From the IMG/VR virus record IMGVR_UViG_3300045972_000219: a DNA stretch of 64,000 bases, one strand, 5' to 3'. Of this stretch, positions 5,637-26,183 are shown one piece after another. Below the pieces are notes generated by a model. It did no database searches. It was not told the origin of the DNA and was given only the letters and a program-made list of their open reading frames with translations. The position numbers and the translations under genes are program-made. The DNA is from a virus. Its lineage: Duplodnaviria > Heunggongvirae > Uroviricota > Caudoviricetes. The stretch's first letter is position 1, and every line of letters begins with the position of its first letter.

Positions 5637-5831
5637 TGTAGCCCAAGGACTCTTACGGTGTGTTAGATTCCAGCGGGGTATAATGGAGTGATAGTTAACA
5701 ACTATCTATGATGGGTATGCGGATAGTATACTAATGTCATAAATCTATCCATGACGCTTTGAGGACGCTCTTAGCCTATCTGGTCTTTCCTGCATTATGT
5801 CGTCTACGTGAGAGTTGGTATAAGCTACATA

Positions 5832-7976: not shown

Positions 7977-8302
7977 TGAGAAGTATATTACGGTGTCCTA
8001 AACATCAGATATCTTTTAAAGGAAATGAGTGCTGTCCGAAGTGTTACCCTGATGCAAATAATCATCCTAAAATAAATATAGAGAGGATACATATTATGAA
8101 ATGTCCACATTGCGGATTTAATGATGGTAGAGGAGAAAAGAGTTATTATAAGATAAAAGCTAAGGGAACTAGAGTAGTTAATATACCTCCTGAAACTCAG
8201 TCTGTAGATATTTTTGGATGCCCAAGTTGTCTTAAACTATTTATAAAAGTAGATGGACAAGGAGAGGCTATATGCCAGTCAATGCAACAGGAACAAGCGT
8301 AG
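7973..8302 (+). CDS. multi-zinc-ribbon protein (109 aa)
   Basis: CPKH..CCPKC, CPHCG, CPSC motifs. Confidence 0.5.
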   Translation: MMRSILRCPKHQISFKGNECCPKCYPDANNHPKINIERIHIMKCPHCGFNDGRGEKSYYKIKAKGTRVVNIPPETQSVDIFGCPSCLKLFIKVDGQGEAICQSMQQEQA

Positions 8303-9237
8303 TATTTTCTAGCGGTAATGTTAATAATGGTTATTGGATCCAATCATCCGAGTACACATCTTCATCTGGAACTGGCGTGAATATTATTAGCCATCCTATG
8401 ACTAGTGTAAGCTTTAATCAGAGTGATGACGATGATGAATCAGGTCTTAAACCAACAAAGGGTATTCACCCTAAATTGATATTTAAGTATACTAAGTCTA
8501 GACTTACAAAGCCTGATTTAGATACACTTAAACAGAATTTATCTAAGCTCCGACCTATGATTGTATCAGCTGATATAATGGGTCAACGTGTTTTGTTCGA
8601 AGAGTTATCACAGCAGTTAGCAGTGTGTGTAAAAGAACAAGAAGCTCTAGCTATTGGATGCGGTCATCGCCTTCCAAGAGAACTTGCAAAGAAATATACT
8701 GATAAATGTCGAGATAAGGTTATTCGCTTCGAACCTCTTGAAAAATTCCCTAGAATGATTCCTGAGAGAGTAAGAAATAAGATAATTGAAATCAAAGCAA
8801 CAGATGTATTTGATGAATATTGGGTGTTATTTATTGATGAGTCTAAACAAAAGCTTCAGTCTAATAAGGATAAGATCAAAGAAAAAGATCCTATCTTATT
8901 TGGATGCTTTAAGTTCAATCCTGAGACATTATATTATATCACAGATTGGATTGATGAGTACTGTGATTTAACAATGTCTAAATTAGTAGGTGAAATCAAA
9001 ATTGACGATCCTGAATTTGCATTAGATAGAGTTCCTGATGTAGATCAGAAGTACGTTGATGAGATTGTTGCTGCAGTTAGGGAAAGAGCAAGAAGACTTG
9101 AAATGACTAAAGCTTCTAACTATAAAGAACTTATGGTCGAAGAAGACCGAGTTAAGAAAGAGAAAGAAGTAGCTGAAAACACTATAGGTAAACGTGTCAG
9201 AGATGCATTTGGTCGTTTTATGAAAAGGGGTAAATAA
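8272..9237 (+). CDS. hypothetical protein (321 aa)
   Basis: ORF track; no recognisable motif. Confidence 0.55.
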   Translation: MPVNATGTSVVFSSGNVNNGYWIQSSEYTSSSGTGVNIISHPMTSVSFNQSDDDDESGLKPTKGIHPKLIFKYTKSRLTKPDLDTLKQNLSKLRPMIVSADIMGQRVLFEELSQQLAVCVKEQEALAIGCGHRLPRELAKKYTDKCRDKVIRFEPLEKFPRMIPERVRNKIIEIKATDVFDEYWVLFIDESKQKLQSNKDKIKEKDPILFGCFKFNPETLYYITDWIDEYCDLTMSKLVGEIKIDDPEFALDRVPDVDQKYVDEIVAAVRERARRLEMTKASNYKELMVEEDRVKKEKEVAENTIGKRVRDAFGRFMKRGK

Positions 9238-10654: not shown

Positions 10655-10763
10655 TTTATTAAGTAATTAAAACCTACTAAACATCCCGATATGATATTGT
10701 ATTGGAGGAGGCACTTGGTTTGTCCTGAGATGGACTCCCAAGGGAGCAACAGGTAGGTGTATT

Positions 10764-11036
10764 ATGGAAAAGACAGTGGACACTGGACTTAGATGCTTAA
10801 CACCGCTACAATTATCTCTTTTGTTTCATTATCATCACAAGCATGAGTGCTACGATAAAGATGATTTTATCGCAGTACTCGCACATGATGAAATGAGCGA
10901 TATGGGATTATTGGAATGTAAGGCTGGTCACTGGTTTAGTACTAAGCTTGGTACTGGACATGTAAGATTCATTTTGGGTATGTCTATTCAATTAGATAGA
11001 CGTGAAAAGTGCGTGAGGCGTAGAGGTTTGATTTAA
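10764..11036 (+). CDS. hypothetical protein (90 aa)
   Basis: ORF track. Confidence 0.4.
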   Translation: MEKTVDTGLRCLTPLQLSLLFHYHHKHECYDKDDFIAVLAHDEMSDMGLLECKAGHWFSTKLGTGHVRFILGMSIQLDRREKCVRRRGLI

Positions 11037-11044
11037 TGTATATT

Positions 11045-11119
11045 GGTAAGTAACTCAGTTGGCAGAGTCCTTGACTGTTAATCAAGTTGTCGCAGGTTCG
11101 AGCCCTGCCTTACCAGCCA
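11045..11119 (+). tRNA. tRNA-Asn (anticodon GTT)
   Basis: Cloverleaf folded by hand: acceptor TGGTAAG / CTTACCA; anticodon stem CTTGA / TCAAG with loop CTGTTAA; T-arm GCAGG-TTCGAGC-CCTGC; discriminator G; encoded CCA. Confidence 0.8.
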
Positions 11120-11812
11120 TACACTTTTCTAGCTGGACTGTATTCCCTTTGATAAGGATACATATAAACTGACTTCATATCCAAACATGAAGCATCCAGC
11201 TAGATCAAGTTTGAGATAGGTTGTATAGGGGTACGTCTACTACGCCCAGTAAGTGATATATGGAACTACGAGCCTCCTATGATCACCAGAGTAGACTACG
11301 GGACTGTGACAATTGGCGAGGTCACACGTAATAAACATGAAAGGTATGAGACGAAGGCTCTCTTCCCACATGGATCAGGCAAGCTAGAAAAAGGGTACGT
11401 ACTGAAGTAGTAGGGCATTGAGACGTGGTGCTTAGCGAGGATGAATAATCCCAGACGAGTAAACCGGATAACCGAGAAAGGTACTATAAGACTGTCTCTC
11501 TAGCAACGGATAGTAGATTTTGGTCAGCGGCAAGCAGTAGTTAGCTAAAAACTTATATCATTACACTTAACTATGCTTTAATATAAGATGCTAATGAAGT
11601 TAACGTGTACCTGAGAGTGAGCCGAAACTCTCCTTGAAAATTTTATGGAACCCGTCAAGTTTGTGCTTGGACTTTGGATTCTACCCTAGACCACGTTCGA
11701 GTCGTGGATACAACTATCTCACCGGTAATGCCAGTACTATCCTTACTACCGACAACTCCTTGTGCTGAAGGGTTGCTTGAAGAAATCGGAGATGGATAAT
11801 TAAATTAATGAG
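11120..11812 (+). ncRNA. candidate structured ncRNA region (about 690 nt ORF-free, GC-elevated)
   Basis: No ORF of 60 aa or more in any frame. GC is visibly higher than in flanking coding DNA. Long-range inverted repeats (for example CTAGCTGGA...TCCAGCTAG at 11128-11205). A tRNA-like T-arm CCACG-TTCGAGT-CGTGG lies at about 11691-11707. Confidence 0.3.
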
Positions 11813-12043
11813 GTGAATATGGGAGTTCCAATTAAGAACTATAATATGAAAAAAGTAGATGCTGAAATTGATAACTTCTGTCAAGATATCACTCCAGTCA
11901 AAGAAGGTGGAACAAAAATTACTGATTTCGAAGATTTAAAAATAGCTTTTCTTGAGTTAAATGAAAAACACAATAAATTAGCTATAGACTATACTAAATT
12001 AAAATCATCTATTCGTAATCAAATGCTAATAGCAAATATTTAA
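11813..12043 (+). CDS. hypothetical protein (76 aa)
   Basis: RBS GAGGTGAATATG. Confidence 0.45.
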   Translation: MNMGVPIKNYNMKKVDAEIDNFCQDITPVKEGGTKITDFEDLKIAFLELNEKHNKLAIDYTKLKSSIRNQMLIANI

Positions 12044-21152: not shown

Positions 21153-21570
21153 GGGGGTGAACTAGTTTCGACGGGGGACTAATAGTTATAAACACGCTCA
21201 GAGGTTTCTCGTTGGCCTCTTTAAACTACGAGAACACAATTAATTGCCAACGCTATTAATGCAGTACGTAACTTCTTTGCAGCAGACAACTATGCCTTTG
21301 CAGGTGTAGCAGCTGCTTAAGAAGTAAAAATTCCTACAGCTTAATCGTAGGTGGGGTAGAGAGTAGAGAGCGACCTTGTAACTCTTCACCCATCAACAGA
21401 AGAAACAATTAGGAAGAAATTAGTTTGACTGATACTAATCAACAACAGTCTAGAGTCCAATCCGATTTGCCTTTTTGGGATACAGCTCGAAACACTAAAC
21501 AGGCTATGAGCGTACATGTTGTAATGAAAGGTTTTTCGGACCCGAGTGGCAGTACTCGGCACCTCCACCA
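21153..21570 (+). ncRNA. ssrA: tmRNA (SsrA-like transfer-messenger RNA), phage-encoded
   Basis: The 5' end GGGGGTGAACTAGTTTCGACGGGGG matches the tmRNA 5' consensus (E. coli GGGGCUGAUUCUGGAUUCGACGGG). The 3' end CACCTCC-A-CCA pairs with the 5' 7-mer and includes a G3:U70 wobble, the Ala identity element. TTTCGGAC precedes the T-arm as in E. coli. Internal tag ORF 21279-21320 GCAGCAGACAACTATGCCTTTGCAGGTGTAGCAGCTGCTTAA encodes AADNYAFAGVAAA-stop. The T-loop is non-canonical (CCGAG-TGGCAGTA-CTCGG). Confidence 0.7.
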
Positions 21571-22612
21571 AATTTAAGATAAGGGAAAACCTACTTGATA
21601 GGTAATGGTTAAATTGGACTCCGAGGGTTAATTTCTCTCTAGTAATACCAGTCCTACCTTATCTTAATCCTTCTATTCCTTCCACCACGGAGAAATCTAC
21701 ATCTCCACTAGATTGTAGAACGGTCTAAAAGCTTAATGTGAGTTTGATCACTCAACGAGAGCTTAATAGCATAGGGGTTCTGGAGGCTTTTATGCTGGCG
21801 GAAGGAAATCAATTTGGGCATCACTGACGAAAGCTGCTCTATCCGTTTTACTTTAAAGGTTTTGATGCATGCATCTTTATCTTTCTAAAGTAAAGCCTGA
21901 TAGAACCAGTTCGTAAACGCATGCCAAGTCAATGGGCTTATTAATTTAAGCCCATTGGCGGTACTAATTTGTCGGTAAGGGCTTAAGCCACCCTTACAAA
22001 TTCCGTGTCCTACCTCTCGATATAGGATTACGTTGGTATAGTGTTAACCTTGCCAGTAGCAAGCATTTAATGATCGTCTGATCTGAGGATGTAAGACTTG
22101 TGAATCGTGCTGGTTGAACTCGATAGGACTTAGCTCCGCTATACAAGGTTCAAGAGGAGAGATTACTTCAAACTATCTTGATAAATCGAATCGAAGAAGT
22201 CCAAGAGAGATATTCTCCTTGGCCTCAGTCTATAATTTATTATAGACAATCAGTCCCACTATCAACTATAGGTAGGGGAGTCATGCTAACTGACAACTGA
22301 TGAGCCTATTGCCGTTAGATAGAGAAAAGTGGAGGGACGAAAGACTATATGTCATTTATATCCCGTAGAAGCGCACCTAATTGTGGTTGACTATAAAAAC
22401 TTATCAGTAAATTCAAGTCAAGATAAGAAATCACAATACAATAGGTTAAGTCTCTAGGCAAGTTGGAGCTAGTCCAGACATAAAGATGTAGAGCGACTTA
22501 GGACTCTACAAGCTATTCGAGAAAGAGATGCTATCGGATAGAAGTCATGAATACTTAAGGGGGTATGGCCGTATACCCATCATCTCCGGCCAATAAATTA
22601 TAGGAGACCATA
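21571..22612 (+). ncRNA. candidate large structured ncRNA (about 1040 nt ORF-free, GC-elevated) directly 3' of the tmRNA
   Basis: No ORF of 60 aa or more in six frames. GC is higher than in flanking coding DNA. Many local hairpins. Ends at the RBS of ORF 22613. Confidence 0.3.
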
Positions 22613-24116: not shown

Positions 24117-24133
24117 ATTAAAAGGAGGTTCTA

Positions 24134-24328
24134 ATGCAACCACATCAAGAAAGAGTAGTTCAAGAGAAAGAGGAACTTGATAAAAAAGCTAATGCATTAA
24201 GTGATTTTATAGGGAATAGTCCAATTTTCGAAACAATTGATCCTGAAGAACAAGAACGACTTAAAGAACAAAATGATATCATGTGGCAATACTCTGAAGT
24301 ACTTGGTAAGCGTATTGCAGCTTTCTAA
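24134..24328 (+). CDS. hypothetical protein (64 aa)
   Basis: RBS AAAAGGAGGTTCTAATG. Confidence 0.5.
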   Translation: MQPHQERVVQEKEELDKKANALSDFIGNSPIFETIDPEEQERLKEQNDIMWQYSEVLGKRIAAF

Positions 24329-24329
24329 T

Positions 24330-24895
24330 GTAATCTAAAAACAGCCTATAAGATTCTTAGGGACGGTTAAGCCACGTAGGATACAGTCTCATGAACTGTA
24401 CTCTGAAGGGATAACTCCATGATTACAGTAGATGTTTACCACTACTTGCCAGATAAACAATAGGTTATTGCAACGTATTGCTGGAGAGGTAATAAGCTAA
24501 CTAGATAGGTCTATGCATGGATGCTATCTAGTGACGTCGAAATAAGAAGGTTATTCTAGATAGTCCTTCTTAGCGGTAAACACTTTAAACAAATTAATGT
24601 GTGGGTGACAAGCGGAATTGTTTAAACGTCTCTTCAGAGCAAGGAGAGGCCCACACATTTAATATGAAAGATTGATCTTGATATCCAACTTCTAACGGTA
24701 CAATTCCGTTGATGGTACCAATAAGGCAATGTATTAGACTGCAATCTAATCGAAGCCAAATGGTTGCCCTTGCAGGGGAGAAGTGTGAAAGAGAGAATTA
24801 GTTGCGGGAGACAATCTGCGGACTGTCAAACAGATGCATTTTCTATGACACGGAAGTGTGGATATCAAGATGAATGTTCCATATAAAAGGAGAAA
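24330..24895 (+). ncRNA. candidate structured ncRNA region (about 570 nt ORF-free)
   Basis: No ORF on the plus strand. GC-elevated. Only an overlapping minus-strand ORF (24746..25033), which is probably spurious. Confidence 0.25.
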
Positions 24896-24899
24896 TGTT

Positions 24900-25001
24900 A
24901 TGAAGTGTGGAATAACTAAAGAGAAGATGTATTGCATTACATGTAAACAAGTAGTAGATGGAACAAGTGGTATTTGTCCTAATTGTGGAGCAGCTATATA
25001 A
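24900..25001 (+). CDS. zinc-ribbon mini-protein (33 aa, MKCGITKEKMYCITCKQVVDGTSGICPNCGAAI)
   Basis: Strong RBS AAAAGGAGAAATGTTATG. CxxC...CxxC motif. Embedded between two ORF-free regions. Confidence 0.4.
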   Translation: MKCGITKEKMYCITCKQVVDGTSGICPNCGAAI

Positions 25002-25029
25002 AACCGTATTTGAATATTACGAATATTCT

Positions 25030-26183
25030 TCAATAAAAAATTATTAACATAAAATTACATAACTCAGATTGACCCATGAGTACGGTTTTCTTTCGGGAAG
25101 ACAGTGCAATAATGGGGTGTCATGGGGGGGCAGGTTTCATGTCCTCGTTGGAGGTAAACCAACGGAAGAATAACTCTAGTAATAGAGATAAAAGATTTCT
25201 ATGATCCATAAGTAGAGTCTGGTGAGAAATATGCTATCCATTGTGAATGCACTCACTTCAATTGAAAACCATTAATACACAATATTCTTGGGCGGAGGAA
25301 ACCCTAAAGGCTTCCAAAGAGAATATTACTTGGTATGAAGGTCGCATACTGAGTTGAGTCGAAAGACAATAGAATGTATTAATGCTTGTAATGTGCAATG
25401 GACTAGTCATCCGGAGTGCGTACATGAGTTATCGGTTATCCCTATTGCGTTTGCCAAAGCGCACCTAGATTGGCATCTAGGTCAAGAAATTGGTGGGAAA
25501 TGACTAAATACAGTAAGTATCCTTGACAGGAGAAAACAGAAGGGTGACGCATCTAAACTACTCAAAAGGTAGCATGATGACAACGTCAACCTCATCCTTC
25601 ATCAAACGACTAATGGATAAATTCTATTATAATCATTGGATCTGAAATCCAAACTATATGAGATGATATCTATAAAAGCAAAAGTGTTGACGGCATTTGA
25701 ACTAAAATGAACTTATTCCTCTGTAATATGGGGATATCTGAAAGTACCGCAAGGAAATCAGATAAGAAGAAACGAGTAACATTGACCTAACAGGTGGGAA
25801 CCTGTGAACTCTGCCAAGAGAGGATGTGTGAAAGAAGTAATCTATACAGTCAGATGCAGAAGAGTTGCAAGACTCTAAAACTTGTGTTCATGGATGCTAC
25901 TATCTTGAAAGGGATAGTGTGTAAAGAGTTTCGAAAGAAATTTTAACGTATCCATTACGGGTCAATTTACTCAGCCCAACAATTAATAATCGCCTTATTC
26001 CCCTCCATAGGAATAAGGCGATTTATTAAATCTCCTTTCCACCGTAGATTAATGGGAGATGAGCACTCATGTAGAGCATGCTACCTTTATGGTCACAATG
26101 CATGTACTAAGTCTGGCAATCTCGATGTGATCCCGACTCTCGCTCACAAGTGGATGGACATCCACTATAAATAACGTCTAAAT
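25030..26183 (+). ncRNA. candidate large structured ncRNA (about 1150 nt ORF-free, GC-elevated) ending at a terminator
   Basis: No ORF in any frame. GC is markedly above the genome average. Ends with an intrinsic terminator at 26184-26230. Confidence 0.3.

Follow-up and report, generated by a model that had tools for sequence, protein, structure and literature searches.

We tentatively propose that the non-coding gap directly downstream of the tRNA-Asn gene of an uncultured jumbo phage encodes a functional, processed large orphan non-coding RNA (ncRNA), which would be co-transcribed with tRNA-Asn and would carry a tRNA-like minihelix as a handle for processing or stability. The gap lies at positions 11120-11818 of the window, the whole 64,000-nucleotide stretch of phage DNA analyzed here. 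The RNA of this region is neither a tRNA, with or without an intron, nor a tmRNA, and it belongs to no Rfam family. The helix that closes its central part is statistically unusual and thermodynamically dominant.

The source phage is AT-rich (33% GC), and the contig from which the window is taken extends to 171 kb. The window encodes gyrase A, an SPFH protein, a DHH phosphoesterase, a radical-SAM protein, and a split RNA polymerase beta subunit of the phiKZ/AR9 type, and contains three tRNAs and one tmRNA. The virion proteins are ~26% identical to their counterparts in the Bacillus phages PBS1 and AR9, and no close relative of the phage was found in INPHARED or IMG/VR. Elsewhere among the window ORFs, one matches the Thoeris inhibitor Tad6 and another a ClpP protease. 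The gap begins 1 nt past tRNA-Asn, with a tRNA-Leu 650 nt downstream, and the next gene starts at an ATG at 11819 behind the ribosome-binding site (RBS) GAGGTG at 11810-11815. Because the neighboring genes all lie on the + strand and neither a sigma-70-like promoter nor an intrinsic terminator was found inside 11120-11818, co-transcription with tRNA-Asn is plausible, and tRNA-Asn is the probable co-transcription partner of the region.

The sequence on the other side of tRNA-Asn has features of its own. The GC-rich island starts already at ~10700 and spans a 90-aa ORF (10764-11036), which shows a coding-like GC1>GC3 gradient and whose product has no homologue among 1.8 billion representative proteins. 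Within it, 10800-10919 folds into a very stable structure with a z-score of about -5 on both strands. If this ORF is not real, tRNA-Asn would be embedded in a non-coding region of ~1.16 kb.

The first-pass annotation had described a ~690-nt non-coding block directly after tRNA-Asn, with elevated GC and no ORFs. The block itself was confirmed at 11120-11818 (~700 nt), and its GC of 0.43 is indeed elevated over the 0.33 of coding sequence. The statement on ORFs needs to be relaxed, as the longest reach up to 56 aa and shorter ones exist. All six frames contain 12-24 stops each, and these are of mixed type in every frame, so stop-codon recoding is not the explanation for the missing gene. Codon-position GC is flat across the region; real genes in this phage have a GC3 of ~0.17-0.29. 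No remnant of a protein was found when the six-frame translations were compared with PHROG, in which nothing scored better than E=0.17. A decayed protein-coding gene was rejected on these grounds, namely the lack of a residual frame, of codon periodicity, and of protein-family similarity. The GC content of the region is instead RNA-gene-like. It is the highest among the long ORF-free gaps in the window. Ordinary gaps have values of 0.25-0.36, and the remaining long gaps with high GC contain the tmRNA and a GOLLD RNA. A much shorter ORF-free gap of 171 nt at 5637-5807 also has a GC of 0.43, which is unusually high for a spacer here.

On folding, the sequence between the tRNA and the next RBS falls into three domains, each closed on its own (Table 1). 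Domain 1 is closed by a perfect 10-bp inverted repeat, UCUAGCUGGA/UCCAGCUAGA, at 11128-11137 and 11195-11204. The inverted repeats noticed earlier, CTAGCTGGA at 11129-11137 and TCCAGCTAG at 11195-11203, are present as described and form part of this longer repeat. The domain is far more stable than shuffled sequence, with z-scores of -5.0 (+ strand) and -4.9 (- strand). Its 5′ arm UUUUCUAGCU (11125-11140) is also complementary to AGCUAGAAAA (11376-11391) in the body of domain 2, and the motif UCUAGC occurs at 11128 and again at 11499, so alternative pairings between domain 1 and the body are possible. Domain 3 has a z-score of -2.1, and 12 nt separate its end from the RBS of the following ORF. 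The predicted fold shows no GNRA tetraloops.

Table 1. Predicted features of the gap downstream of tRNA-Asn and its upstream neighbor (window positions).
Feature	Position	Strand	Description	Basis
tRNA-Asn(GTT)	11044-11119	+	Upstream neighbor with encoded CCA	ARAGORN; Rfam tRNA, 64.9 bits
Domain 1	11123-11210	+	88-nt three-way-junction hairpin with two inner hairpins	MFE; pair probabilities 0.83-1.0
P1, 5′ strand	11212-11226	+	UGAGAUA extension, bulged G, acceptor-like GUUGUAU (11220-11226)	Pairs with 11708-11721
P2, 5′ strand	11228-11233	+	GGGGUA, 1 nt past P1	Pairs with 11682-11687
Body	11234-11681	+	~450 nt, purine-rich, GC 0.43, without open frame	Predicted sub-helices of uncertain validity
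P2, 3′ strand	11682-11687	+	UACCCU, followed by spacer AGA	MFE, pair probabilities
T-arm	11691-11707	+	5-bp stem, G53-C61-type closing pair, loop UUCGAGU	Pair probability 0.96-0.97
P1, 3′ strand	11708-11721	+	Acceptor-like AUACAAC, extension UAUCUCA, no CCA after it	MFE, pair probabilities
Domain 3	11738-11798	+	Interrupted hairpin upstream of the RBS at 11810-11815	MFE; four sub-helices above 0.85

Domain 2 (11212-11721) is the central element of the gap. The hairpin CCACG-TTCGAGT-CGTGG, which had drawn attention to the region, is present at 11691-11707, and the ATACAAC that follows it at 11708-11714 has its matching 7-mer GTTGTAT at 11220-11226. These 7-mers turn out to be the inner half of a closing helix, P1, of 14 Watson-Crick pairs with one bulged G, formed between 11212-11226 and 11708-11721 with pair probabilities of 0.92-0.97. 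A second helix, P2, pairs GGGGUA with UACCCU at probabilities of 0.61-0.75, and the T-arm hairpin is placed between P2 and P1. The domain thus has the order P1-P2-body-P2′-T arm-P1′ in both the MFE and the ensemble of a single-sequence prediction. P1 adjoins the T stem without a spacer, as in tRNA; that is, the 7-bp GUUGUAU/AUACAAC helix is contiguous with a 5-bp T stem bearing a UUCRANN loop, which is the arrangement of a tRNA acceptor/T-arm, and the pair probabilities of this unit are 0.84-0.97. The loop is identical to that of the phage’s own tRNA-Leu(taa).

Several observations indicate that this arrangement is beyond chance. T-arm-type hairpins, defined by a 5-bp stem and a TTCRANN loop, occur only 8 times on both strands of the 64 kb, and these comprise the 3 real tRNAs, the hairpin at 11691-11707, and 4 with weak AT-rich stems. 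The T-arm at 11691-11707 is of real-tRNA quality, on a par with the T-arms of the three genuine tRNAs. Only 3 of 400 dinucleotide shuffles of the region produced a long-range helix of 14 bp or more with no more than one bulge; this strict-helix count replaced RNAduplex on the terminal thirds, which permits large loops. Given the rarity of the T-arm, the shuffle result, and the direct junction of P1 with the T stem, we consider the acceptor/T-arm minihelix real and non-random.

On the + strand, the 510-nt domain 2 as a whole folds no more stably than its shuffled counterparts (z=-0.07, compared with z=-2.8 for the phage’s own tmRNA), and on the - strand it gives z=-2.0. Local windows of 120 nt within the body all have z>=0. 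The + strand is favored only by the T-loop motif, the gene orientation, and a few G-U pairs. A control in which the interior was shuffled revealed no signal above background for a D-arm or an anticodon arm.

The first-pass annotation had read these elements as a hint at a degraded or intron-interrupted tRNA, or at a tRNA-derived structured RNA. The intron reading did not survive. ARAGORN with intron detection (introns of 0-700 nt) makes no call at its default threshold, no Rfam family matches, and shuffled controls equal or beat the real sequence. The proposed comparison with group I intron models likewise returned no family at E<=10 on either strand of a 1201-nt or a 536-nt stretch. A degraded tRNA is compatible with the data and leaves the 7 extra pairs past the acceptor-like stem unexplained. 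A structured RNA derived from or mimicking a tRNA fits the anatomy best, as far as one sequence can tell.

The most specific form of the intron reading is a tRNA-Pro(UGG) gene in which a self-splicing intron of ~419 nt sits at the 5′ border of the anticodon loop, a model that we regard as highly unlikely. At the relaxed setting -ps90 with introns allowed, ARAGORN does propose tRNA-Pro(tgg) with a 419-nt intron. When these 419 nt are removed in silico, tRNA-Pro is called at the default threshold, and the anticodon loop of the model, UUUGGAU, has U33 and A37. However, the call after removal reflects an optimization over many possible deletions. When the interior was shuffled with the acceptor and T-arm kept fixed, 50 of 300 sequences (17%) were still called at -ps90, and 12 of 300 (4%) passed at -ps95, where the real sequence fails. 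The same -ps90 setting makes 5 other false calls in the window, and -ps80 gives 143 calls in all. As shuffled interiors match or beat the real one, the D-arm and anticodon arm of the model are no better than random.

The structure and the nucleotides of the tRNA-Pro model point in the same direction. Forcing the cloverleaf costs 9.3 kcal/mol relative to the free fold, and no cloverleaf forms when the hypothetical spliced 77-mer is folded. The model has A8 in place of U8 and lacks G18-G19. The identity set of bacterial ProRS consists of G72 and A73, and the model carries G1-C72 and U73, contrary to this set. Group I introns require that the 5′ exon finish in a U that pairs with an internal guide, and that the intron itself finish in a G. 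Two registers are compatible with an anticodon loop of 7 nt, and they place G/C or U/U there, never U(-1) with a terminal G, and no CUUAC-type guide (the complement of GUAAGU) is found near the 5′ end of the intron. Neither group I nor group II models matched at E<=10. The acceptor 3′ strand runs into UAUC with no CCA, whereas the three tRNAs and the tmRNA of the phage all end in CCA. An uninterrupted tRNA with the T-arm and acceptor pattern was not found among the 185,579 species genomes of GTDB, nor in JGI metagenomes, in which 29 pattern matches were chance occurrences in coding DNA without a T stem.

An intron-containing tRNA was rejected on the ARAGORN controls, the fold cost, the splice nucleotides, and the missing CCA. 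A group I or II intron, RNase P RNA, tmRNA, GOLLD, ROOL, and Y RNA-like RNA were also rejected, as Rfam 15 was blank at E<=10. Bacterial tRNA genes with a group I intron do exist, cyanobacterial tRNA-Leu(UAA) being an example. In such genes, as in our region, several hundred non-coding nucleotides part the acceptor 5′ strand from the T-arm and acceptor 3′ strand. The region differs from them in having no intron core, no right splice nucleotides, and no convincing D-arm or anticodon arm.

A non-functional relic has to be weighed as well. The region could be a former tRNA or tmRNA-like gene broken by an insertion, or mosaic junk acquired with tRNA-Asn, of which only the T-arm and the end-pairing are recognizable. 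Such an origin would agree with a body MFE z-score of about 0 and local windows at z>=0, with the missing homologue and Rfam family, with the absence of an encoded CCA, and with a D-arm and anticodon arm no better than random; moreover, the GC-rich island that spans 10700-11800 could have arrived as one piece of foreign DNA. Against it, one would not expect a relic to retain a perfect T-arm and 14 Watson-Crick pairs across 480 nt, including 7 that no tRNA needs. It also would not be expected to hold RNA-gene-level GC over all 700 nt of an AT-rich genome whose ordinary spacers have 0.25-0.36, and jumbo-phage genomes are otherwise tightly packed. We judge a relic to be rather unlikely. If the region is a relic after all, it would show that a perfect T-arm with an acceptor match suffices to trigger false calls of intron-containing tRNAs.

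The blastn comparison of the region with 50,697 phage records gave nothing at E<=1e-5 and only chance matches of 25-37 nt at E<=10, and megablast with 25 kb of the window gave no match. Of the flanking and neighboring proteins, the 174-aa one has no relative, a 694-aa window protein has one relative at 59% identity, and the DHH phosphoesterase has numerous homologues, none of them syntenic, at whose loci nhmmer found nothing. Scans of IMG/VR with the flanking proteins also found nothing. Alignment scans of metagenome, viral, and genome collections revealed no relative, and the window’s own contig was absent from these collections too. Exact and degenerate DNA patterns (T-arm with acceptor, 5′ junction, an internal 18-mer, and tRNA-Asn) gave no true match; their results were zero, 29 chance matches in coding DNA, or one in a phage of 60% GC. 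Exact-protein look-ups returned, as the only other copies, 100% identical ones on contigs from the same samples. Hence no divergent homologue of 11120-11818 was found by nucleotide, protein, or pattern searches.

The region might alternatively act in cis, either as a structured 5′ leader or processing region of the mRNA for the small ORFs from 11819, or as a DNA element such as a replication or packaging site, an attP, or a MITE-like insertion with a 14-bp inverted repeat. This group of explanations appears quite improbable to us. A leader would be consistent with domain 3 stopping 12 nt short of the RBS of the next ORF; on the other hand, 700 nt of leader for a 74-aa ORFan would be unusual. 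For a DNA element, the P1 strands are readable as terminal inverted repeats, and folding of the - strand equals or surpasses that of the + strand, as expected for symmetry at the DNA level. The T-loop motif is nevertheless present on the + strand only. There is no target-site duplication at 11211/11722 and no second copy within the 64 kb, which speaks against a mobile element or repeat family. Replication origins of AT-rich phages are normally AT-rich, not GC-rich. Among the 65 ORFs, no Pfam family characteristic of an integrase, a transposase, or a reverse transcriptase was found. The 20-mer CACGTTCGAGTCGTGGATAC, which covers the T-arm and the start of the acceptor, is absent from the 185,579 species genomes. 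Because this T-arm and acceptor sequence is absent from the species genomes and no integrase is found among the 65 ORFs, the idea of a phage attP derived from a host tRNA was removed. The pseudogene, attP, and MITE readings lack support. One of the ORFs, however, encodes a 321-aa protein at 8272-9237 (+) that matches a PHROG annotated as transposase (E=6e-21) and carries no Pfam family.

Returning to the proposed large ncRNA, we can outline how it might be made. The + strand transcript of tRNA-Asn would carry the ncRNA from the 11120-11818 gap. Its core would be ~500 nt long, running from 11212 or 11220 to 11714 or 11721, with ends that are predicted to pair as the 14-bp helix and to stack directly on the canonical T-arm. 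In the resulting acceptor/T-arm minihelix, P2 would lead into the 450-nt body. The minihelix may serve as a handle for the tRNA-processing and protection machinery of the host, with RNase P acting at the 5′ side and RNase Z or exonucleases at the 3′ side, and T-loop modification enzymes possibly recognize it as well. Such a handle would free the body from the polycistronic transcript and stabilize it, and the body might then act on its own as a phage RNA, like GOLLD and ROOL. The 7 extra P1 pairs past the acceptor-like stem are not the usual substrate geometry of RNase P or RNase Z. The phage also encodes a tmRNA and a GOLLD RNA, so it does invest in large ncRNAs beside tRNA genes.

These other RNAs lie downstream in the window. 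The normal tmRNA of the phage is located at 21153-21570 (Rfam, 104 bits). It was missed by ARAGORN at default, has an atypical T-loop, and carries a tag frame that appears to end in ...GVAAA*, as read off the cmscan alignment. A divergent GOLLD RNA is found at 25539-25977 (+) with RF02032 (80.6 bits, E=1e-20, full model 1-416). It adjoins tRNA-Leu, 14 kb downstream of our region, and it was missed by the default Rfam scan because its score is under the gathering score of 150. Long-range helices between 25393-25497 and 26038-26103 appear to close a GOLLD unit of ~710 nt, and its full extent is probably ~25393-26103. The gap between tRNA-Leu(taa) and GOLLD (24117-25390) is ORF-poor, and in it a perfect 12-bp inverted repeat, AUCUUGAUAUCC/GGAUAUCAAGAU, closes an element of ~200 nt at 24675-24871. 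Directly 3′ of the tmRNA, the ~1040 nt at 21571-22612 (+) hold no ORF of 67 aa or more and reach a GC of 0.44. Rfam yields nothing for this stretch at E<=5, and it does not resemble 11120-11818; it is a second candidate large ncRNA.

Large ncRNAs beside phage tRNA genes, such as GOLLD and ROOL, are among the least understood RNAs of bacteria and phages. A bolder and more doubtful proposal is that the region is the founding member of a new phage RNA class, in which a ~450-nt body is held in a minimal tRNA mimic and matured by host enzymes. It would then be one of at least three large ncRNAs, with the divergent GOLLD and the unexplained 1-kb gap after the tmRNA, beside the tRNA and tmRNA genes of a jumbo phage related to AR9 and PBS1. 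The layout of the class would be an acceptor and T-arm with tmRNA-like wiring, without alanine identity, CCA, or tag. If true, this would be a third, unrelated RNA design in the genomic niche of GOLLD and ROOL, and the tRNA mimic that defines its ends would offer a concrete maturation mechanism by RNase P and RNase Z cleavage. A phage that combines a tmRNA, GOLLD, the 11120-11818 element, and the 1-kb gap would lend itself well to studying why phages devote sequence to RNAs of this kind.

In architecture, our region resembles tmRNA. The helix order predicted for it, P1-P2-body-P2′-T arm-P1′, is that of tmRNA, both fall in a similar size class (~500 nt for the region and 418 nt for the tmRNA of this phage), and both have the same GC (0.43) and are phage-encoded in a tRNA region. 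Despite this, the region matches no tmRNA covariance model at E<=10, and ARAGORN -m at default makes no call of a tag reading frame in it. It has U3-A70 rather than the G3-U70 alanine identity pair, a 1-nt spacer rather than a D-loop analogue of ~12 nt, and no encoded CCA, and its P1 runs 7 bp past the acceptor. If the proposed RNA exists, tmRNA-like architecture would not be bound to trans-translation.

GOLLD and ROOL share the genomic setting. They are phage or prophage RNAs of ~580-800 nt, and the region is likewise large, tRNA-adjacent, and located in a phage genome. The region matches neither model at E<=10, whereas the same type of scan finds the GOLLD of this phage (E=1e-20), and its predicted fold rests on one sequence with an MFE no better than shuffled. 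GOLLD sometimes carries whole tRNAs in its linker, whereas our region would be enclosed by a partial tRNA mimic. GOLLD and ROOL have been described as large ncRNAs beside phage tRNA genes with which they are possibly co-transcribed (PMC12286853, PMC5737381).

The closest functional analogy is the engineered tRNA scaffold, in which an insert takes the place of the anticodon arm, so that its ends are processed under the direction of the acceptor/T-arm module, which also protects it in vivo (PMC3753655). RNase P recognizes the coaxial stack of acceptor and T-arm rather than sequence (PMC4919922, PMC11143913). Scaffolds still have a D-arm and terminate in a free 3′ RCCA, whereas the region has neither D-arm nor CCA, and its 5′ leader is base-paired to the 3′ trailer. 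If the proposed RNA is matured in this way, the region would be a natural counterpart to the engineered tRNA scaffold.
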